From an uncultured Clostridia bacterium (GTDB lineage: Bacteria; Bacillota; Clostridia; TANB77; CAG-465): 64,000 bases of DNA. A model generated the notes under the pieces. It had not been told where the DNA came from. It worked only from the letters and a program-made list of their open reading frames with translations, and ran no database searches. The DNA lies in assembly GCA_947628005.1 (NCBI GenBank), contig CANQYI010000001.1, forward strand, positions 193,110-257,109, read 5' to 3'. Position numbers and translations under genes: made by a program. This document shows positions 2,391 to 64,000 of this stretch, one piece after another (the first letter of the stretch is position 1; every line of letters starts with the position of its first letter).

Positions 2391-3035
2391 TTATTTTAGT
2401 CCTCCTACGATTATATTTACAAATATATTATTGTTATATAAAAATTTAGTTAACATACTTGAATCAATCATATCTGTAACCATTTTTGTAAATGGTACTG
2501 TAGAAACAAAATATATTATAGCAAGAACTATATAAATTTTTACTAACATTTTTAATATTCCAAAAATTACTCCACCTATATTATTAACACTGTTTAGTAT
2601 AGGTAAATTAAACACAACATTTAATATCATTTGTAAAATATATGATATTAGTGTTACTATAAAGAATATCAACACAAAACTTAATCCCTTTAATATTGTC
2701 ATTGTAACATCATCTGAGACTTTTTGTATTTCTTCTTCGTTTGCTACTTTATCAATTAAGATACCGTAAAAATCAATTTTTTCTTCTTCAGCTGAATCTG
2801 AATTGTTTAAATTTTCTTTCACTAAATTATTTATTTGGTCTTTTATAGTAGTATTAATCCCTTGTCCAATACTTGTACTGTACAAAGATTTTGCAACAGA
2901 AGTTTGTAAAATTAATGCTAATACTATTGCGGCAATCATTCCAATTACACTAAAGAGAATACCTATTAGACCTTTTTTATATCCAAAGAATGCTCCTATA
3001 ACTATTAGAGCTAATATTATTATATCTAGTATCAT
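2391..3035 (-). CDS. CvpA family membrane protein
   Basis: N-terminus MILDIIILALIVIGAFFGYKKGLIGILFSVIGMIAAIVLALIL is typical of CvpA. Multiple TM segments. Confidence 0.7.
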   Translation of the reverse strand: MILDIIILALIVIGAFFGYKKGLIGILFSVIGMIAAIVLALILQTSVAKSLYSTSIGQGINTTIKDQINNLVKENLNNSDSAEEEKIDFYGILIDKVANEEEIQKVSDDVTMTILKGLSFVLIFFIVTLISYILQMILNVVFNLPILNSVNNIGGVIFGILKMLVKIYIVLAIIYFVSTVPFTKMVTDMIDSSMLTKFLYNNNIFVNIIVGGLK

Positions 3036-5678: not shown

Positions 5679-6596
5679 CTAAAATACTTTTTTTATCTCT
5701 TCTTTAGTTATTCCATACTTTTCATATAAGGCTTTAACACTACCAGATTTTCCAAATTTATCTTGAACTCCAAGTTTAAATAACTTTTTAGGGCACTCTT
5801 CTGTTAGTATATTTGATATTATACTACCTATTCCCCCTATAACACTATGATCTTCAATAGATACTAATATCTCAGTTTCTTTTGCACATTTTATAATTGT
5901 AGTTCTATCTATCGGTTTTATACTATATAAGTCTACTACTCTTACATCTTTTCCCTGTTTTTTTAGTTCTTCCTTTGCTTCAAGTGCAATTGATACAGTA
6001 GATCCTACTGCAAATATTGTTCCATCTGTTCCATTTCCAAATTGTTTACTAGATCCTAATTTAAATTCATCGTTTAAGCTGTAAATATCTGGCATCTCAC
6101 TTCTTCCAAGTCTTACGTATTTTGGACCTGATTCGTTTAAGCATAAATCCAAAATTTTTTTCGTTGATATATCATCAGCAGGGCACAATACTGTCATGTT
6201 TGGTATAACGTTCATAAGTGCAATATCTTCTATACATTGGTGTGTTGCGCCATCTTCTCCAACTGATAGACCCGCATGTGTTGCACAAAAATTTACATCT
6301 ATTTTGGAATATGCAGCTGTATTTCTTATTTGCTCATAAGCCCTTCCAGCCAAAAACATTGCAAACGATGAAGCAAAAACTTTTTTTCCTTCTAAAGCCA
6401 TACCACATGCAGTTCCCACCATATCTTGTTCTGAAATTCCCATATCAAAATGTCTTTTGCTAAATTTATCTCTAAACATAATGGTACATGTTGCTCTTGC
6501 AAGATCTGCATCAAGTACTACTACATCATCTCTTTTTTCACCTATATGTACTAAATATTCCCCATAAGCTTTTCTTGTAGATTTCATATACACCAA
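5679..6596 (-). CDS. transketolase, C-terminal (pyrimidine-binding) subunit
   Basis: About 305 aa with a transketolase Pyr/C-terminal domain. Sits immediately downstream of the N-terminal subunit gene, the split transketolase arrangement common in anaerobes. Confidence 0.85.
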   Translation of the reverse strand: MVYMKSTRKAYGEYLVHIGEKRDDVVVLDADLARATCTIMFRDKFSKRHFDMGISEQDMVGTACGMALEGKKVFASSFAMFLAGRAYEQIRNTAAYSKIDVNFCATHAGLSVGEDGATHQCIEDIALMNVIPNMTVLCPADDISTKKILDLCLNESGPKYVRLGRSEMPDIYSLNDEFKLGSSKQFGNGTDGTIFAVGSTVSIALEAKEELKKQGKDVRVVDLYSIKPIDRTTIIKCAKETEILVSIEDHSVIGGIGSIISNILTEECPKKLFKLGVQDKFGKSGSVKALYEKYGITKEEIKKVF

Positions 6597-51824: not shown

Positions 51825-52481
51825 TTAACTAATTCTATAATGTCCAATGATATCTTCTTTATTATATAATTCTAGTACATCTTCTTCATAATTTAATTGC
51901 ATTAAATTTGCATGATGTATTAAAAACGGAATTCCATTCTTATTTCTTTTGTCAGATATTATTCCTATATGATTTTTAAAAACAATTATATCTCCACCTT
52001 GCCATTCTTCAATTTTAGATAAATCAGTAGTTAGCGAAATACTATTATTTTTAAAGTATATATCTAAATTTCTCACTCTTCTAAAATCTATATTTTTATC
52101 TATTTTTTCAATATTATATATTTCTTTATTACTTATAATATCTTCATTTACTAGTTCCATCAAATCATATCCTGCACCTTTTAATCCATTTGCAACAACA
52201 TCCGTGCATACACCATATTCGTCATCCGGATAACCAGATTCATAATACTTACTTTTATATTTTGGTCTTGTTTTTATATATTTTCTAACATTATTTAATA
52301 TATCAGTTTGATCATCTACTCCATCACCATCTTTATCAACATGGCTAACATATACTTCAATATTAAAATCACTATTACTATATTTTTTATGTGGAATTAT
52401 ATTAAATATATATGTCATAATTACTATAATAAAAATTAACAATAATATTATTATAATTTTTATTGATTTTTTCAATTTCAA
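51825..52481 (-). CDS. DUF1287 domain protein (TTG start)
   Basis: …GYPDDEYGVCTDVVANGLKGAGYDL…WQGGDIIVFKNHIGIISDKRN…LIHHA is typical of DUF1287. TTG start with an AAAGGGGA RBS. Lies downstream of repeat-module copy 1. Confidence 0.6.
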   Translation of the reverse strand: MKLKKSIKIIIILLLIFIIVIMTYIFNIIPHKKYSNSDFNIEVYVSHVDKDGDGVDDQTDILNNVRKYIKTRPKYKSKYYESGYPDDEYGVCTDVVANGLKGAGYDLMELVNEDIISNKEIYNIEKIDKNIDFRRVRNLDIYFKNNSISLTTDLSKIEEWQGGDIIVFKNHIGIISDKRNKNGIPFLIHHANLMQLNYEEDVLELYNKEDIIGHYRIS

Positions 52482-52511
52482 ATCCCCTTTGTAACAAGTT
52501 GTTTTTTCAAT

Positions 52512-52574
52512 TAAAGTATATCAAAAAAGCAAGTGATTGTAAATACATTCACTTACTTGTGTAAATTGTAATTT
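52512..52574 (-). promoter_or_regulatory. conserved promoter/operator module, copy 1 (minus-strand TTTACA-17-TATACT with an AAGTGA-N12-TCACTT palindrome over the -35)
   Basis: Near-identical ~60-bp sequence present six times in 52.5-63.2 kb. Reads as a sigma-A-like promoter toward the DUF1287 gene. Confidence 0.6.
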
Positions 52575-53076
52575 ATCTTTTAACTTTTTTAATAAATAGG
52601 AAGTAAACGATTATAGGTATTATTATTAAATCTGGTATAGTAAATGTTCTAACTAGTATATAATTTCCAATAATTGTTACTAAAATAAGTCCTATTGATA
52701 TAAATTTGGCAAATAATCCTTCTTCTTTTGTTTTCCAAGTAAAATAAGCAAATAAAGGCGATAAACAAGAAAATATTGTCCAACCTTTGATAAAATTCCA
52801 GCTATATACTGCATTTGTTAATTCTGCTGTTACATAGTATGAAATTAGCATTCCTATACAAAATGGAAATATATTTATCATTGCTTTTTTCCTTGTATCA
52901 CTATATATCGAAATCAATATTCCTAATAGTACCCATATTGGTAAATCTGAAAACATATATCCAAGTGTCATCATAAATAAATTGCCAACAAAAAGTATAT
53001 CCAATAATTTGCTTATTATTCCTAAAATAGCACCTATAAAAAATAATGAAATAGGATTTAATATATATTTCTTCAT
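52573..53076 (-). CDS. hypothetical polytopic membrane protein (167 aa)
   Basis: 4-5 TM helices. Downstream of repeat-module copy 2. Confidence 0.45.
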   Translation of the reverse strand: MKKYILNPISLFFIGAILGIISKLLDILFVGNLFMMTLGYMFSDLPIWVLLGILISIYSDTRKKAMINIFPFCIGMLISYYVTAELTNAVYSWNFIKGWTIFSCLSPLFAYFTWKTKEEGLFAKFISIGLILVTIIGNYILVRTFTIPDLIIIPIIVYFLFIKKVKR

Positions 53077-53110
53077 AAATTATCTCACTTTCAAATTACT
53101 ATTTTCTAAC

Positions 53111-53146
53111 TAAAGTATATCAAAAAAAACAAGTGATTGTAAATAG
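53111..53146 (-). promoter_or_regulatory. conserved promoter/operator module, copy 2 (truncated; -10 and -35 retained, distal half-site lost at the ISL3-remnant junction)
   Basis: Matches copies 1, 3, 4, 5 and 6 up to GTGATTGTAAATA, then diverges. Confidence 0.5.
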
Positions 53147-53158
53147 GTTATATAATAA

Positions 53159-53584
53159 ATGTTGGAGTGTAAAATAAATTTTTACACTTCAACATTATTT
53201 TTTAGCAAAAAAATTCAACATACTTCTATCGGTCATATTTCTTCCTTTTTGATTCTTAAAAAACGTAGATATGTTTGCACACATTGTGGCAAAAGATTTT
53301 TTGAAAAATATGATTTCTTACAAAAATATTTTAGAAAATCTAATGCTGTCTTTAACAATGTTTGTGATGATCTAAAATCTTTGAAAAATTTTAAAACTAT
53401 TGCTAAAGATAATAATGTTTCTACTCCTACCGTTGTGAGATATATGCATTACAATTATTATTTTTCTAACAAACATAATTTTGCCTTACCTGAAAAATTG
53501 GTATTGATGAATTTAAAGGTAACTTATGCTGTTTTATTGAATAGAAAAGAGAAAAAGAAATATAATATAGTAAATGGTTATTGA
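53159..53584 (+). pseudogene. ISL3-family transposase N-terminal remnant (zinc-ribbon + HTH only)
   Basis: …KKRRYVCTHCGKRFFEKYDFLQ… (zf-ISL3-like) followed by an HTH-like …NNVSTPTVVRYMHY…. The DDE catalytic domain is absent. Confidence 0.5.
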
Positions 53585-53625
53585 AAATTTTTGTCATAAA
53601 CGGCAAAAATTTTCAGTTTCCAGTT

Positions 53626-53655
53626 GACTATTTATATTAAAAACGCTATAATTTA
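53626..53655 (+). promoter_or_regulatory. sigma-A promoter (TTGACT-17-TATAAT) flanked by direct repeats TAAACGGCAA(A/T)n
   Basis: Seen directly. Repeats at about 53596-53613 and 53674-53692. A GGAGG RBS precedes the ATG at 53704. Confidence 0.55.
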
Positions 53656-53703
53656 ATTGAAAAAAATTGACGTAAACGGCAATTTTTTTCAATGGAGGTA
53701 ATT

Positions 53704-54945
53704 ATGAAGGAAATTCCAAGACCAAAATATTTGCAAAATTTAATAAATAAAAAAGAAAATGGTTTTATAAAAATTGTTACTGGAATTAGAAGAAGTGGAA
53801 AATCTTATCTTCTAGATCCTATTTACAAAAATTATTTATTAGAGCAAGGTATAAAAGAAAATCATATTATAAAAATTGATTTAGATGATAGGGAAAATAA
53901 ATTATATTTAGACCCAGATAAATTAAATAAGTACGTAAAAGACTGCATTAAAGATGATGATATGTATTATGTAATAATTGATGAAATTCAAAAAGTAGAA
54001 GATTTTGAATCCGTATTAAATGGATTTTTACATGTAAAAAATTTAGATGTATATGTTACAGGAAGTAATTCTAAATTTCTTTCAACAGATATTATTACAG
54101 AATTTAGAGGGAGAGGCGATGAAATAAGAGTATTACCTTTAAGTTTTGCAGAATATATTTCTGCTTATTCTGGAACTGTTGAAGAAGCTTGGAATGAATA
54201 TATTGTTTATGGTGGATTACCTAGAATTCTAAGTTATAAGACAGAAGAAGAAAAGTCAAAATATTTAATTGATTTATTCAAAGAAACATATTTAAAAGAT
54301 ATTATTGACAGATATACTGTTCAAAGAATAGATATATTAGATGCTCTAGTTAATATGATTTCATCATCAATAGGCTCATTAACAAATCCAAAAAAAATAG
54401 TTGATACTTTTTCTAGTAACAATATTAAAGATACTTCAATAAATACAATAGCGTCATACTTAAATTATTTAGAAGATGCATTTTTAATTAATAAAGCTGA
54501 AAGATATGATGTCAAAGGCAAAAAATATATTTCAACACCATTTAAATATTATTTTTCGGATATTGGGTTGAGGAATGCTAGAATCAATTTTAGGCAACTT
54601 GAAGAAACTCATATAATAGAAAATATTATTTATAATGAATTAAGATATAGAGGATACAATGTAGATGTTGGAATAGTTGAAATAAGAGAAAAGAATACTA
54701 GAAAACAAGTAGAAGTAGATTTTGTTTGTAACCAATCTTATAAAAGATATTATATTCAATCAGCATTAAGATTACCAACTAGAGAAAAAACATTACAAGA
54801 AGAAAGACCTTTGTTAAATATTGGAGATAACTTTAAAAAGATAATTGTTACAAAAGATACCTCAAAGCACTGGATTACGGAAGAAGGAATTTTGGTTATT
54901 GGAATTCAAGAGTTTCTATTAAATGAAAATAGTTTGGACATATAA
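53704..54945 (+). CDS. AAA+ ATPase, COG1373 type (AAA_14 + DUF4143)
   Basis: Walker A GIRRSGKS, Walker B VIIDEIQKV, and a C-terminal DUF4143-like region. Start at MKEIPRPKY after a GGAGG RBS. Confidence 0.7.
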   Translation: MKEIPRPKYLQNLINKKENGFIKIVTGIRRSGKSYLLDPIYKNYLLEQGIKENHIIKIDLDDRENKLYLDPDKLNKYVKDCIKDDDMYYVIIDEIQKVEDFESVLNGFLHVKNLDVYVTGSNSKFLSTDIITEFRGRGDEIRVLPLSFAEYISAYSGTVEEAWNEYIVYGGLPRILSYKTEEEKSKYLIDLFKETYLKDIIDRYTVQRIDILDALVNMISSSIGSLTNPKKIVDTFSSNNIKDTSINTIASYLNYLEDAFLINKAERYDVKGKKYISTPFKYYFSDIGLRNARINFRQLEETHIIENIIYNELRYRGYNVDVGIVEIREKNTRKQVEVDFVCNQSYKRYYIQSALRLPTREKTLQEERPLLNIGDNFKKIIVTKDTSKHWITEEGILVIGIQEFLLNENSLDI

Positions 54946-55064
54946 AAATAAATGTATACTAAAATAGGAATTACAACATAAGCATAATTAAATAATAATA
55001 AAAATGAACAAAAACAATATTATAACTTTATAATTTTTCAAATTTAATTAATTACTTATCTGAC

Positions 55065-55125
55065 TAAAGTATATCCAAAAAGCAAGTGATTGTAAATACA
55101 TTCACTTGCTTTGCGATTATAACTT
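55065..55125 (-). promoter_or_regulatory. conserved promoter/operator module, copy 3 (orphan: no ORF downstream on the minus strand)
   Basis: TTTACA-17-TATACT and palindrome conserved. Points into the 3' end of the convergent AAA ATPase gene. Confidence 0.5.
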
Positions 55126-55753
55126 ATCTAATAAAATTTGTAAATGTAATTTTTTCTGTTGCAGGTGGTTTTACTCCTCTTTCTTTTCCAGCCTCAATAC
55201 ATTTTAAATAATAAGCCATATTTTTACCAAGTATTCTCATTATTTGCATGCCTTCTTCATCTTTTTTTACTTCTTCTGGATTGGAACCATGTACCATATT
55301 CCAATATCTAGAAGAAATTACTGGCATTTGAGTCATTGTATAATATTTATTTAATTGTTCAAATGTAGCGGTAGTTCCTGCTCTTCTTGCTGAAACCACC
55401 GTTGCTGCTGGTTTTAATCTAAATATATCTAAATTTGAAAAAGTTGAGTAAAAAAGTCTATCCATAAAAGATGTAATTGCACCTGAAGCTGCTGCATAAT
55501 GGACTGGTGTTCCAAAAACAAATCCATCAGCTTTCTCAGCTTTTTTGGCAAATTCATTTACAACATCATCAAATACACATTTTCCTTTTTCTGCGCATTT
55601 ATGACATGCAATACATCCTGATATAGGTTTTATACCTATCCAAAATATTTCAGTTTCAATTCCTTCTTTATTTAATTCTTTTGCAACTTCACTAAGTGCA
55701 GTATAAGTACACCCTTCTTTATGTGGACTACCATTTACCAATAATACTTTCAT
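55124..55753 (-). CDS. flavodoxin-like fold iron-sulfur flavoprotein / NAD(P)H-dependent FMN reductase family protein
   Basis: MKVLLVNGSPHKEG…CIACHKCAEKGKCVFDD… Start at the ATG at 55753 after a GAAAGGAG RBS. The ORF-track TTG extension is rejected. Confidence 0.7.
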   Translation of the reverse strand: MKVLLVNGSPHKEGCTYTALSEVAKELNKEGIETEIFWIGIKPISGCIACHKCAEKGKCVFDDVVNEFAKKAEKADGFVFGTPVHYAAASGAITSFMDRLFYSTFSNLDIFRLKPAATVVSARRAGTTATFEQLNKYYTMTQMPVISSRYWNMVHGSNPEEVKKDEEGMQIMRILGKNMAYYLKCIEAGKERGVKPPATEKITFTNFIR

Positions 55754-55795
55754 AATTAGCAACTCCTTTCTTTAATAAATTACTATTCATACAAT

Positions 55796-55862
55796 TAAAG
55801 TATATCAAAAAAGCAAGTGATTGTAAATACATCACTTACTTGTACAAATTATAATTTGTAAT
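55796..55862 (-). promoter_or_regulatory. conserved promoter/operator module, copy 4 (upstream of the flavoprotein gene)
   Basis: As copy 1, with a 1-nt deletion in the proximal half-site. Confidence 0.6.
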
Positions 55863-55866
55863 TATT

Positions 55867-56745
55867 TTATAAATTTTTTCTATAACTATTATTTATTGTT
55901 GCATCAAATCCATCTGGTAAATATTCATGTGGTATATGCTCATTATATTTAATATCCATAAAGTAATTGCAGAATATCATTTCAACATATATTATTCTAT
56001 TATTTCCATCAGTAATTGCATATACAAACCCTTGATATGAATCAGATTCCATTGCTAGTAATTTGTAATTAGTAAATCCTGTTACTCCATAATAACCAGT
56101 ATAATCTTCTATTCCATATTTATTTAATCTTTCAACTTCTTTTTCATATTCATTTTCAGTATAATCTACTACTAAATAAGATAAATATTGTTTATCCCAA
56201 GCATCTAAATAAACCATTTTAAAATCTTTAACATTTAATTCATTAATTGATTTTGGAAATATTTCTTCTGACATTCCCCATTTGTCTTTATATTTATTAT
56301 TTGCATTAACCCCTATAACTTCCTGATATTTATTTGTATCAGTTATTACTTCATCTTTATTTAATCCACCCATAAATATAAATATACAATTAAAAACAAC
56401 TATTAAACTAATTGCAATTATTCCAATTATAATTGCAATAGATTTAAACATATTTTTTTGTTTTTTCATCTTATAATATTCTTTTAGAATTAAATCTAGA
56501 TTTTCAATGCTATGTGTTTGAATATCATTCTCTTCAATTTTTTCACCACTTAAAAACTCATTAACATCAATGTCTAATATATTGCATAGTTCTTTTAATA
56601 TAGAATAATCTGGCATATTTCTTCCATTTTCCCAATTTCCAATAGTTCGATCTGATACTTCTAATCTTTCTGCTAATTCTTTTTGAGTAATCTTTTTTTC
56701 TTTTCTACAAGTTGCAATAAATTTTCCGATTTTTTCTTGATTCAT
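55867..56745 (-). CDS. membrane-anchored XRE-family HTH regulator with extracytoplasmic C-terminal domain
   Basis: N-terminal HTH (MNQEKIGKFIATCRKEKKITQKELAERLEVSDRTIGNWENGRNMPD…), single TM, and a ~170-aa C-terminal domain. Paralogous N-terminus to the 59694-60302 gene. Confidence 0.7.
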   Translation of the reverse strand: MNQEKIGKFIATCRKEKKITQKELAERLEVSDRTIGNWENGRNMPDYSILKELCNILDIDVNEFLSGEKIEENDIQTHSIENLDLILKEYYKMKKQKNMFKSIAIIIGIIAISLIVVFNCIFIFMGGLNKDEVITDTNKYQEVIGVNANNKYKDKWGMSEEIFPKSINELNVKDFKMVYLDAWDKQYLSYLVVDYTENEYEKEVERLNKYGIEDYTGYYGVTGFTNYKLLAMESDSYQGFVYAITDGNNRIIYVEMIFCNYFMDIKYNEHIPHEYLPDGFDATINNSYRKNL

Positions 56746-56851
56746 AATTCTACTCCTTTCATACCAACATTTTATAATGTAAAAGTTGATTTTAACAGGA
56801 AACATATCAAGGGTAGATAAAATATTTTTACAAATTACTATTTTGTATTAA

Positions 56852-57496
56852 TTATATAACGATTACAGCAATTATATTAGCAACAAAATGTGATATCCAG
56901 CTGCACCATGCATTGTCTGTCTTCTTAAATACAAGACCATAAAATATAGAATCTATAAATACAAATATTAAATCATAAATAACAATTAACGGATTATTAA
57001 AATTAAAATGTCCTAAGGAAAATAAAACTGATGTAATTACTAATGATGGTATAAATTTTATGATCTTTGTAGTTTGTTTTTGAAAAAATGCTCTCCACGC
57101 TATTTCTTCTCCTAACGCTGCTACTGCAAGAATTAATATTGTTTTTATTATTTCTGATGAATTTATAAAATTTGTTCTATTGCTTAAATGCTCAATATAT
57201 TCTGGTAAAAATATTTTTGCAACCATAACACATACTATCTGTAATAACGCAGGAGTAATTGATAATAATATAACTTTTACATCTTTAAAAGAAGACCAAC
57301 ACTTTTTTATATCTAATCCTGATGTTATAACTTCATTTGTTTTTCTGGTAGTAAAATATGCTATAATACCTACAATTACTGATATACCTGCTAATTTTAA
57401 GACTTCTCCATTTACTTTAATATATAAAAAATTTGTAAGAGATAAAATTAGCATTACTATTAATAATATAATTACACTTTTATTTAATTTCTCCAT
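56852..57496 (-). CDS. CPBP family intramembrane metalloprotease (CAAX protease/Abi-like)
   Basis: Motifs EExxxR (GEEIAWRAFF), FxxxH (FSLGHF) and HxxxN (HFVANIIAV) in TM segments. Confidence 0.75.
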   Translation of the reverse strand: MEKLNKSVIILLIVMLILSLTNFLYIKVNGEVLKLAGISVIVGIIAYFTTRKTNEVITSGLDIKKCWSSFKDVKVILLSITPALLQIVCVMVAKIFLPEYIEHLSNRTNFINSSEIIKTILILAVAALGEEIAWRAFFQKQTTKIIKFIPSLVITSVLFSLGHFNFNNPLIVIYDLIFVFIDSIFYGLVFKKTDNAWCSWISHFVANIIAVIVI

Positions 57497-57519
57497 ATTT
57501 TCCCCCTAATTAATTTTAG

Positions 57520-58880
57520 AACAAAAGTGAATCAAAGATTCACTCCACTACAAAAATGTAGTGTTCTTTATAAAGAGTATGGTAGTCTTTAAGTTTTATA
57601 CTTTTAGGCTACTCTTTTCTTTATTGGTCGTTGTTCTCGACCATTATCCATCGCAATTTCTTGGTTTGGAATATAATTATTTATATATTTTCTTAATATA
57701 TTTAAACTTCCGTTTATATCCGCATTTATTTCTTTTCCGGCGTTTGTTATAAATAATCCTCTATATTTTCTTCTTTTTTTATTATAATTTTCTTTATTTA
57801 CTTCTTCTCTATCTATTGCACTTACTCCTGATGTATATCTTTCACTTATCTTTACTACTTCTATTCCTTCTATTTTTGCTTTGTATTCTATCTTTTTAAC
57901 TAACTGTTCTAATGGTATCTGCACGAAATCCTTGTTATAGTTCATATTTTGTTTTATATTTTTTAAATCTCCTATCACTATTTTTGAACATTTATTTTTT
58001 ATTGCATATTCTATTACCATCCTTGATACCTTATGCATAAATGTATTCATATAATCATTACGCTTTTTCCTTAATCTTTTTATTTGCTTTGTATCTTTAT
58101 ACTTTTTATTTCCTACCATTTTCATTTTTATTTGTTGTAAGTTCTTTACTTTTTCATTTATATATTTATTCTTACTTTTGGCTTCCTTTCCTGATACAAG
58201 CAACATATCCATATTTTCCTTATTTGTACATGCTACAATATTATTTATCCCTAAGTCTATTGCCATTATATTTCCTGCTTTACTTGTTTCCTTTTCTTCT
58301 TTTTCATATACTATATTCATTTCTATTTCTTTTCCTTTATTTTTTATCTTTATCATTTTTATGTCTGAAACTAATATTTGCTTTTTTAATTTTCTTGGTA
58401 TTAAAAAATTTAAACTTTCTACTCTATTATTTTCTTGCATTTTCTTTGATATTGATAATTTTATTTTATTTCCTTCTATTCTTACTGCATATTTAGTAAA
58501 TACTATCTCTTGTTCTTGCTTTTCTTTTTTGTATCTTGTATATTTTGGTTCTCCTTTTAATGTGCTTTTATCTTTTTCATATTTTTTCTTTAATGCTATG
58601 TATGATTTATAACTTCCTAATACACTAAGTATAGCCTCTTGTAACATATGTGAATGCAAATACTTGCTATGCCAGTTTTCTTGTCTATACTTTCTATATA
58701 TTGGGGTTGCTATTATATTTATACTTTTTGTAACATCAATTTTTTCTTTTCCCTCTTTTATATCATACAATAACATATTCATTACTTTCTTTGTATGCCA
58801 CTCTAATTCATTAATTATTCTTAATTGTTCTTCACTTGGTTTTTTTATAGAATATTTTAAACTTAGTTTCATTTTTTCCC
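57520..58880 (-). mobile_element. IS200/IS605-family element remnant (tnpB only, no tnpA), with two perfect 7-bp hairpins at the 3' (right) end
   Basis: Hairpins GTGAATC-aaa-GATTCAC (57527-57543) and CACTACA-aaaa-TGTAGTG (57546-57563) lie 40-80 nt downstream of the tnpB stop. Element boundaries are approximate. Confidence 0.45.
57604..58872 (-). CDS. TnpB-like protein (IS200/IS605 OrfB family) with apparent loss of the RuvC-II Glu and of the zinc-finger cysteines
   Basis: RuvC-I MAIDLGINN and RuvC-III NADINGSLNI are present. The expected hhhEDL motif reads KIVIGDL. The CxxC…CxxC positions read TSGVSAIDRE and GLFITNAGKEI, with no Cys in the C-terminal 120 aa. Confidence 0.65.
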   Translation of the reverse strand: MKLSLKYSIKKPSEEQLRIINELEWHTKKVMNMLLYDIKEGKEKIDVTKSINIIATPIYRKYRQENWHSKYLHSHMLQEAILSVLGSYKSYIALKKKYEKDKSTLKGEPKYTRYKKEKQEQEIVFTKYAVRIEGNKIKLSISKKMQENNRVESLNFLIPRKLKKQILVSDIKMIKIKNKGKEIEMNIVYEKEEKETSKAGNIMAIDLGINNIVACTNKENMDMLLVSGKEAKSKNKYINEKVKNLQQIKMKMVGNKKYKDTKQIKRLRKKRNDYMNTFMHKVSRMVIEYAIKNKCSKIVIGDLKNIKQNMNYNKDFVQIPLEQLVKKIEYKAKIEGIEVVKISERYTSGVSAIDREEVNKENYNKKRRKYRGLFITNAGKEINADINGSLNILRKYINNYIPNQEIAMDNGREQRPIKKRVA

Positions 58881-58996
58881 TCCTTTCTTTCTAAATATTA
58901 TATCAAACATTTGTTCAAAAATAAAGAAAAAATTATTATATTTTTTAATAAATTTTCAACACTTTTCGACATTTGCTTATCTAGTGTATTTTAAAC

Positions 58997-59557
58997 TTAG
59001 TATGACTTTCCTATTGTATAAAAAACTTTTTTTAAAATATCAATACAATATTTTTCATTATAATTTATAGAATTATTTGCTAGCAAACTAGCAAGTCCGT
59101 GTGCAGTAATAAATAATAACTTAAATTCCTCTTTTATACTATTTTTATCAATTTTAGTTTCTTTTTCAATTATTTTAAATATTTCTTTAAGTCCATCTTC
59201 ATTATTGTCTATTAAATCATCAAAATTAAAATTTGAAAATTTATCACTTTGAAATAAAAACTTAAATAAATTTTTCTCCTGTTCGGCAAATTTTATATAT
59301 TGAATTCCAATATTTAATAATGGATTATAATTAATATTTTCTTTCATTAAAAATTGTGAATGATAATTATCAACTATATTATATAATTCCTCTTTTAAGA
59401 GATTCATATTCTTATAATGATACATTATCGGCTGTGTAGAACAATTTAGCTTATTAGCTATATTTCTTACATTTAATTTATCAATACCTTCTTCTTTTAT
59501 AATTTTTAGTCCACTTTCTAATATCATATCTTTTGATATTTTAGAAATTACTGGCAT
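58997..59557 (-). CDS. TetR/AcrR family transcriptional regulator
   Basis: N-terminal TetR HTH (…LNVRNIANKLNCSTQPIMYHYKNM…). Confidence 0.8.
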   Translation of the reverse strand: MPVISKISKDMILESGLKIIKEEGIDKLNVRNIANKLNCSTQPIMYHYKNMNLLKEELYNIVDNYHSQFLMKENINYNPLLNIGIQYIKFAEQEKNLFKFLFQSDKFSNFNFDDLIDNNEDGLKEIFKIIEKETKIDKNSIKEEFKLLFITAHGLASLLANNSINYNEKYCIDILKKVFYTIGKSY

Positions 59558-59568
59558 AATATCACCTC

Positions 59569-59615
59569 ATTTATAACATTTGTTATATAACAATTGTTAT
59601 TATAACATTAATTAT
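59569..59615. promoter_or_regulatory. overlapping palindromic operators (TTATAACAtTTGTTATA and ATAACAATTGTTAT) upstream of the TetR gene
   Basis: Seen directly. The 14-bp ATAACAATTGTTAT is a perfect palindrome. Typical of TetR autoregulatory sites. Confidence 0.5.
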
Positions 59616-59693
59616 ATTAATTTACAATATTATCTTTAAAATCTACAAAAAAATAGATTAGTTATGTTTAAACTAATCTTTTAATTGTAATTG

Positions 59694-60302
59694 TTATTTT
59701 GTCAGTACTTTCTTATGCCAGCTTCTTTTATTACACTTTGGACATTTTAAATATCTAATAGTTCCGTAGTGCATTGCAAAATATACTTGTGAATATTTAG
59801 GAATATATTTATTATGACATATTTTACATTCGTAATATCCTGTTTCTGTTTCTATTTTTAAAGCAAATGAAATACCTATTATTAAAATTAAAAAAGCTAA
59901 TATAAATAATATAACTCTAGAAATTATATTTTCAACCGCAAAAAATAATGTAAACATCAAAATTAAAAATGTTATGCTTGATAAGCTTCCTATTACCAAT
60001 TCATACATCATCATTTTTTTATTTTGCATTTCCTCTTTTTTTGCCATTTCTAATAAATTTTCTTCTGCTTTTTGATTATAATTTTCAATTTTGATTATCT
60101 CCCCACTTAATAATTCATTTACACTAATACCAAGTTCATTACATAATTCAAGCATTATGGAAGAATCTGGCATACCTTTACCAGTTTCCCATTTTGATAT
60201 TGCTCTATCTGTGATATTTAATTTCTCAGCTAATTGAAATTGTGTTAAATTTTTATTTTTTCTACACTTAGCAATAAATTTACCAATTTTTACTTGATCC
60301 AT
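59694..60302 (-). CDS. membrane-anchored XRE-family HTH regulator with C-terminal Cys4 zinc ribbon
   Basis: HTH (MDQVKIGKFIAKCRKNKNLTQFQLAEKLNITDRAISKWETGKGMPD…), two TM segments, then CKICHN…CPKCN. AAGGAGG RBS. Downstream of module copy 5. Confidence 0.7.
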   Translation of the reverse strand: MDQVKIGKFIAKCRKNKNLTQFQLAEKLNITDRAISKWETGKGMPDSSIMLELCNELGISVNELLSGEIIKIENYNQKAEENLLEMAKKEEMQNKKMMMYELVIGSLSSITFLILMFTLFFAVENIISRVILFILAFLILIIGISFALKIETETGYYECKICHNKYIPKYSQVYFAMHYGTIRYLKCPKCNKRSWHKKVLTK

Positions 60303-60416
60303 AATTTACCTCCTTTAATATTATTGTAAAGTTATCATATATAAAAGTAAACACACTAATCGTTGAGTGAGGATATCAACGATTAGTTGAACTATAAAAT
60401 TTGTAATTTATTTGAT

Positions 60417-60470
60417 TAAGTATATCAAAAAAGCAAGTGATTATAAATACATTCACTTACTTATACAATT
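60417..60470 (-). promoter_or_regulatory. conserved promoter/operator module, copy 5 (-35 variant TTTATA)
   Basis: As copy 1, with a G-to-A change in the -35 (TTTACA becomes TTTATA). Confidence 0.55.
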
Positions 60471-60519
60471 TATTATTTCAGAAATATTTTTATAAATTTA
60501 AAAGTAGAATAATAACCAC

Positions 60520-61152
60520 TTAAATTTCTTTTTTAAAGTAAATCCTTTCTGATATTTTATATGATATATATAACATTAAAATCATAGCTATTAAAAACAC
60601 AACTATCCAATATGCTTCTATAAGATTTAATATGTTAATTATTGCTGAAAAATCAACATACTGTATTATAAATCCTCCTATAACAGCAACACCAAAAATT
60701 ATAGCCATTAACCAAATTCTTGCTTTTTCTGGTCCAAATTTATACATTGTTGGATAAATAAATGATTGTAATAAAATTGTAGCAAAAAGAGAGCCAAATA
60801 TTGTTCCTGTAATGTTTTCAAAATCTATTATTTTTGTTTTAACATAAGAAATTGTAAAAGATAATATAGTAATAATTATAGTTGTTACAATTATAAGTAT
60901 TATAGTTGCTAAGTATTTGGCTTTTACACTATTTTTTCTACCACCTGGTAAAGATATTGCATACGCATCCCATTTATTGTAAGAATCGTAACTAAATGTT
61001 GACATCATAACCATTACACTCATAAATGGTAATAAAAATGATAAATCCATTTGACCTTGAAAAGCCATGACTACATATATAATTAATAAAATTGCAAAAA
61101 TTTTAATATTACTTTTTATCATTAATAAATCTTTTTTTATAAAACCTAACAT
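60520..61152 (-). CDS. ABC-2 type transporter permease
   Basis: 6-TM small permease. Start overlaps the ATPase gene's stop. Confidence 0.6.
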   Translation of the reverse strand: MLGFIKKDLLMIKSNIKIFAILLIIYVVMAFQGQMDLSFLLPFMSVMVMMSTFSYDSYNKWDAYAISLPGGRKNSVKAKYLATIILIIVTTIIITILSFTISYVKTKIIDFENITGTIFGSLFATILLQSFIYPTMYKFGPEKARIWLMAIIFGVAVIGGFIIQYVDFSAIINILNLIEAYWIVVFLIAMILMLYISYKISERIYFKKEI

Positions 61153-62009
61153 TACTTTTCCCCCTTAATCATTAATACCATAAGCTCTTCAAGTGTTATT
61201 TTATCTATTGTATCTATGTTGTATTTTTTACTGAAAACTTTTCTGTTTTCAATTAAAATTTCATATTCGTATTTACTTTTCTTATATTGAACAAAATCTT
61301 TCTTATCTATCTTTTCAAACTCTTCTTTTGAACATTTAACAATACCATAATCTTCTAGTAATTCTTCTCTAGTTTTTGATAGTATAATTTTTCCATTGTT
61401 TATGAAAGTAATATAATCTGCAATATGTTCTAAATCTGTTGTAATATGACTTGATAGAAAAATAGAACATTCTTCATTTTGAATAAAGCTTTGAAAAAGG
61501 TCTATTACTTCGTTTCTTGCTACTGGATCAAGTCCAGCTGTTGGCTCATCAAGAATTAATAATTGCGGATGATGTGAGATTGCTGTTGCTATTTCCAATT
61601 TTTTTCTCATTCCTTTAGACAATGTTTTTATTGCTTTATTTCTTGGTAATGAAAAATCAGTTAAATATTTTAAATATAACTTTGAATCCCAATTTTTATA
61701 AATGTCTTTCATAATGCTATTTATATCATTTGGAGTTAAAATTTCTGGGAAAAACATATCATCTAGGACAACTCCGACATTTTCTTTAATTTTTTTATCA
61801 TCCTTTTTATTGTCAAGGCCAAATATTTTTATTTCACCTGTATAATTTTTAATAATATCTAAAATTGCCTTAATTGTAGTCGTTTTTCCTGCCCCATTTT
61901 CTCCAATAAAGCCCATAATCATCCCTTTAGGCAATGTGATATTAACATTTTGCAATTCAAATCCTTTATATTTTTTGCATAGATTTTTAACTTCTAATAT
62001 ATTTTCCAT
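61152..62009 (-). CDS. ABC transporter ATP-binding protein
   Basis: GENGAGKTT, LSKGMRKKLEIA, ILDEPTAGLD. Confidence 0.85.
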   Translation of the reverse strand: MENILEVKNLCKKYKGFELQNVNITLPKGMIMGFIGENGAGKTTTIKAILDIIKNYTGEIKIFGLDNKKDDKKIKENVGVVLDDMFFPEILTPNDINSIMKDIYKNWDSKLYLKYLTDFSLPRNKAIKTLSKGMRKKLEIATAISHHPQLLILDEPTAGLDPVARNEVIDLFQSFIQNEECSIFLSSHITTDLEHIADYITFINNGKIILSKTREELLEDYGIVKCSKEEFEKIDKKDFVQYKKSKYEYEILIENRKVFSKKYNIDTIDKITLEELMVLMIKGEK

Positions 62010-62390
62010 TTATTCATCCTCCCCAAATAAATATTCAAATGTTTCTAAAATTTCTTTTTTACTTATATTAGATGTTTTCGATATTAAAACAATTTTATCA
62101 ATATATTTTTCAATCTCCTTCATCTGCTCTTCTTTTAAAAGCTCAATATTTTTTGCTGCAACTAAACTTCCTTTACCGTGAATTGTCTTAATAAAACCTT
62201 CCTGTTCTAATTCATCATAAGCTCTTTTTACTGTCATAACACTAATTCTTAAATCTTGTGCTAAATTTCTAATTGATGGCAAAATTTCATTTTCTTTCAA
62301 TTCATTTGTTGCTATTGCTTTTTTTATAGCTTGTTTAATTTGTTCAAAAATAGGCTGATTACTACTATTGCTAATAATAATATCCATAAT
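62010..62390 (-). CDS. GntR-family transcriptional regulator (short YtrA-like)
   Basis: …ILPSIRNLAQDLRISVMTVKRAYDELEQEGFI… GntR HTH. Start taken at MIMDII. Confidence 0.75.
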   Translation of the reverse strand: MMDIIISNSSNQPIFEQIKQAIKKAIATNELKENEILPSIRNLAQDLRISVMTVKRAYDELEQEGFIKTIHGKGSLVAAKNIELLKEEQMKEIEKYIDKIVLISKTSNISKKEILETFEYLFGEDE

Positions 62391-62780
62391 CATTTCTCCT
62401 TTTTTTACAACTGTTATATCTATATTATAACAGTTGTAACAGTTTGTCAATACTTTTATAAAAAAATAAAAGATTATCTTTTTTTGATAACCTTTTAACT
62501 GAAAGTCATATAAATTGTAATTTAGCTAATAGTATGTGCTGTTATAATTGTATAGCTATATGAGTTAATAGTTATTATTATATTTTAAATCTCACAATAC
62601 CAATTCTTTTCTTGTTTAAATATATTACAATTTTTTCTAAAACTTTATTTTTACAATATTCTACTACATCATTTGTATCTAATTTTAGATTTTTTTAATT
62701 CTATCAATACCCATTTCAGTAGTATGAATTTTATCAATATTTGATAATAATATTTCTTTATTCATATAATTTAAACCTCT

Positions 62781-63080
62781 TTACTTTTTTATTGGTAAGC
62801 CTTTACAAGTTTCAATAACAATTTCTTTTAATAATTCTTTATTATCTACATCATCAACTAAATACATAGGTTTAGCACTCTCATAAGGTATTTGTTCTTG
62901 CATATCATATTTTTTATTACTATTTACTATCTTCACAAGTAATCTGTTATCGTATATTCCACCAAATAACACACCATTATAATATAATAAATACTCTCCC
63001 ATCATTGCTTTACAAGTTATACTATCTAATAAATTTAGTTGTTCTAAAATAAATTTTTTATATTCGGTTGATGTTGCCAT
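62781..63080 (-). CDS. TfoX N-terminal domain protein
   Basis: MATSTEYKKFILEQLN…CKAMMGEYLLYYNGVLFGGIYDNRLLVK… is typical of TfoX_N. Start at the ATG at 63080 after a GGGAGG RBS. The ORF-track extension runs through the promoter module and is rejected. Confidence 0.65.
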   Translation of the reverse strand: MATSTEYKKFILEQLNLLDSITCKAMMGEYLLYYNGVLFGGIYDNRLLVKIVNSNKKYDMQEQIPYESAKPMYLVDDVDNKELLKEIVIETCKGLPIKK

Positions 63081-63116
63081 AATAAACCTCCCATAGAAAT
63101 TACCATTTGTTTGATA

Positions 63117-63180
63117 AAAGTATATCAAAAAAGCAAGTGATTGTAAATACATTCACTTACTTTAGTAAATTGCAATTTTA
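63117..63180 (-). promoter_or_regulatory. conserved promoter/operator module, copy 6 (upstream of the TfoX_N gene)
   Basis: As copy 1. Confidence 0.6.
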
Positions 63181-63476
63181 TAGTTATTTTTGATATTTTT
63201 GTGGTGCTATTCTAAGCTTATTTTAAATTTATTATATCATATATTAGAAAAAAAATAAAAGATATACCAAATTACTTATTTAAGTGCAACAAAAAAAGAT
63301 AGCATCTCTTATTTTAAGTCACTATCTTCTAATAGCAAGATTACTTAGATTTTTTTCAAGCCTTTTTTACAAGAATTCTTGAGTAACTTTTCAATATATA
63401 ATTATATATACTAAAGTTATATATTTTTGAAAAAACTTTATACATTTAAAAAGTTTTTTCATATTTTTGAAAAAAC

Positions 63477-63505
63477 TTGACTATAATATAAAAAAGGAGT
63501 ATAAT
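63477..63505 (+). promoter_or_regulatory. sigma-A promoter TTGACT-17-TATAAT, preceded by direct repeats CATATTTTTGAAAAAACTT (x2) and an 11-bp inverted repeat
   Basis: Seen directly. A GGAGG RBS lies at 63516-63520. Confidence 0.55.
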
Positions 63506-63526
63506 AAAAATAGTTGGAGGAGATTT

Positions 63527-64000
63527 TATGAAAAAAATAAAAAGGGAAAAGTATTTATCTATTTTAAGAAATTTCAAAAATCAACAAATTATAAAAGTAA
63601 TAACAGGAATTAGAAGATGTGGCAAATCCACTTTATTAGAGTTATTTCAAGACTATTTAAAAGAAGATGGAGTTGAAGAAAATCAAATTATATCAATAAA
63701 TTTTGAGGAAGCAGATTATGAAGAATTACAAGATAGAAAAAAATTATATGAATACTTAAAATCAAAGTTAGTAAAAGGTAAAAAAACATATATTTTTTTA
63801 GATGAAGTTCAAAAAGTTAGTGAATTTGAAAAAACAGTAGATAGTCTTTTTATTAATAAAGATGTTGATTTGTATATAACAGGTTCAAATGCTTACCTTT
63901 TATCATCAGAACTTGCAACATTACTTACTGGTAGATACATAGAAATTAAAATGTTGCCATTATCATTTAAAGAATATTTATCAGCATTTGAAGATAAAAC
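63527..64000 (+). CDS. AAA+ ATPase, COG1373 type (AAA_14 + DUF4143), second paralog, 3'-truncated by the window end
   Basis: MKKIKREKYLSILRNF…GIRRCGKST (Walker A) …IFLDEVQKV (Walker B). Same architecture as the 53704-54945 gene. Confidence 0.7.

Follow-up and report, generated by a model that had tools for sequence, protein, structure and literature searches.

We analyzed a 64,000-nt stretch of contig CANQYI010000001.1 from an uncultured Clostridia bacterium (hereafter the window) and found six same-orientation copies of a ~75-bp module, M1 to M6, all located at 52.5-63.2 kb and all reading on the minus strand. First, when the 24-nt core was searched with up to three mismatches, matches were confined to this region, with none expected from 100 shuffled sequences. 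Second, a repeat finder grouped five full copies and one partial copy together. Finally, a profile hidden Markov model (HMM) built from the six copies returned exactly six minus-strand matches in the 64 kb (E values from 4e-19 to 3e-11) and no degenerate copies in the other 52 kb. These searches bore out the six repeat copies claimed in an earlier description made from the letters of the stretch (the sequence-only reading), and Pfam confirmed its gene names DUF1287, XRE, FMN_red and TfoX_N.

Layout of the six copies

The copies stand between genes of an array, and several of them are flanked by short boundary motifs, here termed S motifs (types S5 and S3). M1 (52502-52575) is a complete module with a DUF1287 gene downstream (TTG start at 52481). 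Its S3 motif AAATTACAATTT (52563-52574) overlaps the stop codon of the gene for a membrane protein of 167 amino acids (aa), and is followed by two hairpin arms (52544-52558 and 52529-52541), a U6 tract, and a candidate promoter with -35 TTTACA at 52538-52543 and TG plus -10 TATACT at 52515-52520. M2 (53093-53144) comprises the promoter half only, with its -35 at 53138-53143, an 18-nt spacer, its -10 at 53114-53119, the S5 motif AAATAGTAATTT at 53093-53104 and the membrane-protein gene downstream (ATG at 53076). It had been listed as truncated, which is correct; the missing part is the upstream palindrome arm, from the centre outwards, with the -35 and -10 kept, and in place of this 5' hairpin arm lies unrelated DNA, beside a fragment of an ISL3 transposase gene. 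M3 (55055-55129) contains a complete hairpin (55077-55111) followed by U5, a -35 at 55091-55096 and a -10 at 55068-55073 without TG (it reads GG). M3 had been called an orphan, and no same-strand gene indeed lies downstream, where an AAA_14/DUF4143 gene converges on it with its 3' end, but M3 begins only ~12 nt past the FMN_red stop codon (55124-55126).

M4 (55777-55864) lies upstream of the FMN_red gene (ATG at 55753). It has an S motif AAATTATAATTT (55846-55857) past the stop codon of an XRE regulator gene (292 aa), a hairpin at 55807-55841, a -35 at 55822-55827, a -10 at 55799-55804 and the S5 motif GAATAGTAATTT at 55777-55788. In M5 (60398-60481), the hairpin spans 60427-60462, the -35 reads TTTATA (60442-60447), the -10 occupies 60419-60424 and an S-like motif AAATTACAAATT lies at 60398-60409; the start of a second XRE gene (202 aa) is found at 60302, 116 nt downstream and beyond a separate leader palindrome. 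M6 (63097-63179) precedes a TfoX_N gene (ATG at 63080) and consists of the S motif AAATTGCAATTT (63167-63178), a hairpin at 63127-63162, a -35 at 63142-63147, a -10 at 63119-63124 and the S5 motif AAATGGTAATTT (63097-63108).

Some details of the earlier description had to be adjusted. The arrangement TTTACA-17-TATACT, previously given for every copy, is present in M1, M3, M4 and M6, but not in M2, with its longer spacer, or in M5, with its different -35. The inverted repeat AAGTGA-N12-TCACTT is a real dyad, but a longer one than thought: near-perfect over 13+13 positions, and up to 17+17 if the flanking A/T runs are counted. Start codons had been placed 25-60 nt downstream of the copies; the distance from -10 to start is 33-45 nt for M1, M2, M4 and M6, and 116 nt for M5.

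Predicted terminator and promoter in the module

On the sense strand, the complete module could fold into a stem of ~15 pairs with a 4-nt loop and U5-U6 directly after it. The sense-strand folds ranged from -13.6 to -22.2 kcal/mol (z from -2.7 to -4.7), e.g., -22.2 kcal/mol for M3 (z -4.4) and -18.9 kcal/mol for M6 (z -4.7), and the truncated M2 formed no hairpin (z +0.6). Across 14 distinct variants from the window and other species, 95.6% of the cells were paired and two pairs had changed on both sides. All nine one-sided changes (at four pairs) gave G·U on the sense strand; on the other strand they would be A·C. The core hairpins (-8.4 to -12.3 kcal/mol) were among the 30 strongest of the 200 hairpins with T-runs scored in the window, level with several minus-strand structures of this kind in its core-gene part. 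An Rfam scan of 50-64 kb yielded only a sub-threshold microRNA match, located elsewhere. The palindrome, regarded in the sequence-only reading as a possible protein operator, behaves rather as a sense-strand RNA hairpin with a U-tract. The second AT-rich palindrome AAATTRTAATTT does not belong to an operator; it marks the boundaries of mobile gene cassettes, which occur widely in other genomes too. With moderate confidence, these comparisons suggest that the operator reading should be replaced by a terminator reading.

With regard to the promoter, the -35 and the TATA were invariant among the same variants, as was the G of the TG, with its T nearly so and the following base variable (A, C or T). 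The spacer was 17 nt in every complete copy, and TG preceded the -10 in all window copies except M3. Five copies matched the consensus at 10 of 12 positions, and M5 fell under the display cut-off of the scan. This pattern of conservation is the one that an extended -10 promoter of the sigma-A type should show, and it supports the promoter reading, which is plausible.

We then consider relatives of the module in other genomes, whose loci carry L numbers here. An exact 20-mer scan of one genome per species revealed true copies at seven loci in six rabbit-gut 'uncultured Clostridia' metagenome-assembled genomes (MAGs) and only there, together with two chance matches. A 19-mer scan of JGI metagenomes (39 loci) and IMG/VR (one locus) gave chance matches only, with dissimilar flanks. 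The module was absent from every human-gut locus examined and from the 28 loci L073-L100, 21 of which carry the membrane-protein cassette described below. In the rabbit-gut MAGs, it was again located between unrelated co-oriented genes, including those for a small membrane protein, an ABC-F ATPase, a cyclophilin-like protein and Sir2. Conservation between species reached 86-100% over ~50 nt, although the neighbouring proteins were unrelated to those of the window array, and all 18 distinct copies were intergenic and matched the orientation of their genes. In one MAG subfamily, TATAAT replaced TATACT, with position and spacing unchanged.

The copies agree with the earlier proposal of a propagated regulatory unit before unrelated genes, and they fit the definition of putative mobile promoters, i.e., non-coding segments of 50-100 nt and at least 80% identity that lie upstream of non-homologous genes within and between genomes (PMC3488235). 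That class is purely descriptive. The module adds to it a terminator-like hairpin and a defined slot between cassette boundary motifs, and the latter suggests how the module spreads.

Losses of the two parts were complementary: no copy lacked both, and each affected copy lacked only the hairpin or only the -10. In M2, the hairpin is gone and the promoter is kept, and the upstream neighbour of its gene lies on the other strand. Two related copies, L002a and L009, have kept the hairpin and carry a damaged -10 (TATATG and TATAGG, respectively), after which ~200 nt and a separate TTGACA-17-TATAAA promoter follow. Considering M3, which comes after a stop codon without any gene to drive, M2, with a promoter only, and L002a and L009, with a hairpin only, the module would thus be an intrinsic terminator that overlaps a promoter, and these natural variants fit two separable functions.

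The reading that we prefer, at a probability of about 0.55, is that each copy is an inter-cassette punctuation module composed of an overlapping intrinsic terminator and promoter between the boundary motifs of mobile cassettes. On the minus (sense) strand, the ~15-bp hairpin and U5-U6 tract would terminate transcription of the upstream cassette. The -35 TTTACA would lie within the loop and 3' arm of this hairpin and the U-tract within the 17-nt spacer, followed by TGnTATACT, so that a sigma-A-type extended -10 promoter would restart transcription ~30-45 nt ahead of the next start codon. In most cassette genomes, which have plain 40-nt junctions, the cassettes would apparently be co-transcribed; in the rabbit-gut Clostridia lineage, the spacer would have been swapped for a terminator-promoter unit that provides each cassette with its own expression. 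We infer from the sequence features that termination and initiation actually occur at the module, which presumably spreads as a segment between two S sites.

Several observations weigh against this terminator-promoter reading. The wobble-only pattern corresponds to ~4-5 independent events (roughly p 0.03-0.06), and the shuffle control for overall covariation reached only 21/500. Because the independent events are few, the wobble evidence is suggestive, not conclusive. A symmetric DNA-binding protein would likewise tolerate or preserve much of the dyad. A simple terminator scan did not call the module hairpins, owing to their internal A·A mismatch and few G-C pairs. A terminator inside the promoter that it precedes would be unusual, and in the window strain M6 has no directly upstream same-strand gene to terminate. 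In addition, promoter-like hexamer pairs were not enriched in the AT-rich window (138 versus 144 expected in shuffled sequence), and the argument for the promoter is thus one of conservation and position and not of consensus match.

In the operator model of the sequence-only reading, the -35 of a sigma-A promoter sits within a palindrome that serves as operator for a single repressor or activator shared by the copies, which form a regulon. The near-perfect dyad symmetry centred on the -35 would favor it, as would the four helix-turn-helix regulator genes (two XRE, one TetR-like and one GntR) in the same 11 kb and the double substitutions from C-G to T-A, which preserve the symmetry of DNA as well. 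However, arms of 13-17 bp around a 2-4-nt centre with a T-run have the form of a terminator and not that of a typical operator, and the G·U-only one-sided changes break DNA symmetry. Moreover, M2 has kept its promoter without the left half-site, M3 has nothing to regulate, and the leaders of the GntR gene and the 202-aa XRE gene hold their own distinct palindromes. No regulator gene travelled with the module in the seven related loci of other species, and among the module-adjacent proteins of L001-L009 none was related to any regulator of the window array and no regulator type recurred, which weakens the operator model; a distant trans-acting factor is still conceivable. On balance, we consider this model unlikely. 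Another idea is that the 28-bp dyad (11-6-11: GCAAGTGAATG TATTTA CAATCACTTGC) is the core site of a tyrosine recombinase that exchanges cassettes, its resemblance to a promoter or terminator being secondary. Its architecture is of dif/lox type, M2 breaks exactly at the arm-spacer boundary, and modules stand where strains differ in gene content. The homology breakpoints, however, lie at S motifs or just past the -10 and not at the dyad centre, cassette exchange is equally frequent in genomes without any module, no recombinase gene is adjacent, and the ISL3 fragment that abuts the M2 break can explain that break; such a site therefore appears quite improbable.

The promoter might also be read by a TcdR/UviA-type group 5 sigma factor instead of sigma-A. 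TcdR-class promoters have a -35 TTTACA and a -10 GTTATA (PMC4031146); the module -35 is identical to this element, and GATATA, GCTATA or GTTATA (L027) is found in the modules 15 nt past it. Yet a TGnTATAAT or TGnTATACT element with a 17-nt spacer amounts to a complete sigma-A extended -10. Any TGnTATA extended -10 contains GnTATA, and the module cannot be distinguished from the TcdR class by sequence alone. No Sigma70_r2 or Sigma70_r4 match was obtained among the genes annotated at ~41.2-64 kb of the window (the only part that was domain-scanned), and the driven genes are unrelated housekeeping-like accessory genes and not a toxin or bacteriocin locus, which together make this sigma factor a very improbable reader. 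Least probable of all appears a decaying repeat of the miniature inverted-repeat transposable element (MITE) type without a regulatory role. The module is indeed short, repeated and intergenic, with inverted motifs flanking it, but decay agrees poorly with the conservation over ~50 nt across species beside unrelated neighbours, the invariance of specific positions, the intergenic and co-oriented placement of all distinct copies and the complementary losses.

If the terminator-promoter reading is true, the module would represent a natural compact insulator, ~50 nt long, which ends one transcription unit, starts the next and is portable between unrelated genes. Regulatory DNA would then be a movable part, and the module a candidate tool for low-GC Firmicutes.

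Gene cassettes delimited by the S motifs

The S motifs S5 (AAATAGTAATTTG) and S3 (TAAATTACAATTT), 12-13 bp in length, delimit mobile gene cassettes: S3 is fused to stop codons, and S5 lies just ahead of the Shine-Dalgarno sequence. The clearest case is the membrane-protein cassette (542 bp; 52563-53104, minus strand), which comprises S5, a 15-nt leader with a Shine-Dalgarno sequence, the 167-aa open reading frame (ORF) and a stop codon fused to S3. Over its whole length, with the initial base of AAATAGTAATTTG and the final base of TAAATTACAATTT as its limits, it was near identical in ~13 contexts, and similarity ended at those bases. The window cassette differed by 0-1 nt in 542 from the copies at L073-L082 (10 loci in five other contexts), and a variant with one protein residue changed (L091-L100) differed by 1-4 nt from the L074 copy and occupied about eight further contexts. 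These contexts include chromosomes, conjugative elements and human-gut metagenomes; the cassette was found in cargo regions beside relaxases and type IV secretion genes, near rpsI/rplM, in a Shedu neighbourhood and directly after a tet-type ribosomal protection gene. In the public collection, the exact 167-aa protein was indexed in 9576 blocks and found on at least 1000 contigs, with 'Clostridiaceae bacterium' and 'Bacilli bacterium' among its NCBI nr labels. BLAST searches of PLSDB plasmids and INPHARED phages gave no match to the 542-bp cassette. In addition, L083 matches two other loci on either side of one S5 motif: its 171-nt similarity to L073 runs through the last base of S5, and its 1099-nt similarity to L076, which covers three cassettes, sets in at the first base of that motif. 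Both similarities thus meet at the same 13-mer, which indicates a crossover inside the motif.

A second cassette (62512-63108, minus strand) contains the TfoX_N gene and a frameshifted DUF3781 gene between S5 (63097-63108) and S3 (62512-62523). In related metagenome contigs, it was present in four upstream contexts, with homology from AAATRGTAATTT (window 63108) to the end of TAAATTACAATTT (window 62512). Strain variants obtained by exact-protein look-ups differed in gene content at the modules: in strain L011, the M6-M5 interval, i.e., the TfoX_N cassette and a GntR-ABC operon, is replaced by two small ORFs. As for the DUF3781 gene (62520-62765, minus strand), an intact version of 81 aa is found in L022 and L024; the window interval has no intact frame, 11 stop codons and no called gene, yet DNA identity is 98.5%, pointing to a small indel that shifted the frame. 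In L011 (1-100), the 3' end of a tRNA gene, with the terminator of that gene, immediately precedes the array. On the corresponding side of the window strain lies an AAA_14 ATPase gene, and the source contig ends ~1 kb beyond.

The ordinary junction between cassettes is 40 nt long and reads AAATTACAATTT-AGTAATTAGTTAGAAA-AATAGTAATTTG (S3-16 nt-S5), AGTAATTAGTTAGAAA being the commonest spacer; most genes of these arrays, including the L074 cargo array, are separated in this way. The right flank of M2, TTAGTTAGAA-AATAGTAATTTG, equals the right half of this canonical junction, and AAATTRTAATTT equals its left motif. The module would therefore be a junction in which a terminator-promoter unit replaces the spacer. 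Junctions with a single S motif also occur, one of them without a module in the window (S5 motif AAATAGTAATTT, 56832-56843, minus strand, between an Rce1-like gene and the 292-aa XRE gene) and others in L079 and L011.

Some additional features of these junctions and cassettes were observed. The 40-nt junction TAAATTACAATTTAGTAATTAGTTAGAAAAATAGTAATTTG (e.g., L074 2584-2624) contains stop codons in each of the three reading frames immediately before the next Shine-Dalgarno sequence, and would thereby end translation of any inserted ORF, whatever its frame. In L097 (~3004-3017), the membrane-protein cassette carries at its 3' end a motif of the S5 type (AAATAGTAATTT), as though this motif had been flipped. 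In L095 (~2470-2500), the membrane-protein ORF carries the leader of another cassette, implying that exchange is also possible between the motif and the start codon. A mobilisable element in L077 (3847-5600) has a class A beta-lactamase and VanZ pair between S5 and S3, and a tet-type ribosomal protection GTPase gene directly precedes the membrane-protein cassette in L097 (509-3010). Resistance genes thus occur in or beside such arrays.

As to how these cassettes move, we only tentatively suggest, at slightly less than even odds, that the S motifs define an integron-like system for exchanging gene cassettes, regulatory mini-cassettes included, in low-GC Clostridia of the gut and in the conjugative or mobilisable elements of these bacteria. 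In such a system, single genes or small blocks between the 12-13-bp AT-rich inverted motifs would be stacked co-oriented behind one promoter, with crossovers within the motif, and non-coding segments flanked by two S sites, the terminator-promoter module among them, would act as regulatory mini-cassettes open to exchange. The 12-bp inverted motifs match each other at 11 of 12 positions. The gene lists of the window array and the L073-L100 arrays contained no shared recombinase; the integrases present belonged to different families and stood at different positions. No consistent target-site duplication was seen in ~12 contexts. A full-text literature search for the motif strings and the combinations of cassette DUF families retrieved no relevant description in the literature searched. 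Recombination of longer, repeated leaders or slippage from one motif copy to another could account for some of the indels; however, the joints confined to 13-17 nt beside unrelated promoters argue for either a site-directed process or short-homology capture.

Three other explanations were rejected. An attC-type structured hairpin at the junction does not agree with the S3 and S5 variants, which do not compensate each other. A serine-integrase-type crossover at the centre of the 16-nt spacer would place breaks in mid-spacer, and they were found at the motifs. Assembly chimeras are an unlikely source of so many contexts: the motifs fall below the length of assembler k-mers, and several of the arrangements were seen again in independent samples. 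As a separate observation, in L075 a solitary membrane-protein cassette separates a promoter from the Shine-Dalgarno sequence of a flavodoxin gene (5960-6000 and 6515-6530), with ATAATAAA on both sides, 1-2 nt off the motif edges, which may be an 8-bp target duplication. An empty site was not recovered via homologues of the neighbouring flavodoxin, because this gene itself lies in unrelated contexts.

Compared with known systems, the S-motif arrays share several features with integrons: unrelated, mostly promoterless and co-oriented genes; the same cassette in many contexts, with breaks at a core motif; an inverted pair of core motifs per junction, one just past the stop codon and the other just before the next gene; and promoter-proximal 'first cassette' positions common to different cassettes. 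On the other hand, no IntI gene was found beside any S-motif array examined, and the S motifs read AAATTAC/GTAATTT versus RYYYAAC/GTTRRRY in integrons. Integron attC sites are 57-141 nt long with L boxes, whereas the S junction has 40 nt, no L boxes and motifs that do not co-vary as a hairpin. The S-junction spacer does not travel with the upstream cassette, and the hosts of S cassettes, low-GC Clostridia and their conjugative elements, are different as well. The pdif modules of Acinetobacter plasmids are bounded by short inverted 28-bp XerC/XerD sites and occur in many plasmid contexts with no dedicated recombinase adjacent. S cassettes are likewise bounded by short inverted sites and occur in many contexts without an adjacent recombinase, but their motifs have 12-13 bp and do not resemble dif. 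Repeats of the Correia/MITE type are short, bounded by inverted repeats and able to supply promoters and stem-loops to neighbouring genes. The module differs from them in that no target-site duplication was seen, in its confinement to cassette junctions, in its co-orientation and in having inverted motifs shared with cassettes. Finally, the rAID-1 clusters of Bacteroidales, whose intergenic repeats are reminiscent of integrons according to their authors, also form long arrays in gut bacteria, in which repetitive sequences separate small accessory genes, and show evidence of horizontal transfer (bioRxiv 10.1101/471110). These clusters have a conserved XerD-family recombinase at the array head and carry type VI secretion system immunity genes, whereas no head recombinase was found in the S arrays examined, whose cargo is mixed (membrane proteins, lipoproteins, regulators, a flavoprotein and a beta-lactamase).

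The wider result, a widespread system of motif-bounded gene cassettes, is more interesting than the module itself. Bacteria of the rabbit gut and of the human gut have the 542-bp cassette in near-identical form, and its ends invariably fall at the same 12-13-bp motifs, which points to an efficient route of single-gene transfer in uncultured gut bacteria. Uncultured gut bacteria of this group are not known to carry integrons. If an enzyme were found, or if short-homology recombination were shown to be sufficient, the S cassettes would be a new case on the short list of cassette systems, relevant to the way in which conjugative elements are loaded with accessory and resistance genes.

Neighbouring elements of the array

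Two leader palindromes in the region are likely to be autoregulatory operators and are distinct from the module dyad. One is ACAACTGTTATAATATAGATATAACAGTTGT in the leader of the GntR-ABC operon (62388-62460, minus strand), and the other is CTAATCGTTGA-N9-TCAACGATTAG in the leader of the 202-aa XRE gene (60330-60390, minus strand).

A TnpB-only IS605-type element encoding a 422-aa OrfB_IS605/Cas12f-like protein (57527-59012, minus strand) is located at the 3' end of the TetR-like gene. Strains L011 and L014 lack this element, and its insertion is thus polymorphic. Its terminal right-end (RE) hairpin, AGTGAATC-TTT-GATTCACT, has a 7-nt arm in common with the module hairpin, and their alignment is at chance level. 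An origin of the module as an IS200/IS605 end or a palindrome-associated transposable element was rejected, as its alignment to the left-end (LE) and RE hairpins of this resident element was no better than that of shuffled sequences.

The ISL3-family transposase fragment beside M2 is N-terminal (53158-53584, plus strand), with weak matches to Zn_ribbon_ISL3 and HTH_Tnp_ISL3. It starts inside a perfect 17-bp hairpin (53158-53196) and abuts the truncated edge of M2; a longer version of 180 aa is present in L072. Two paralogous AAA_14/DUF4143 ATPase genes, at 53704-54945 and 63527-64000 (both plus strand), lie on the strand opposite to the array genes, inside the array and at its edge, respectively. 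Upstream of the first gene (53580-53691) are tandem 36-nt palindromic boxes, TGAAAATTTTTG...CAAAAATTTTCA, and upstream of the second (63440-63526) is a repeated box of its own.

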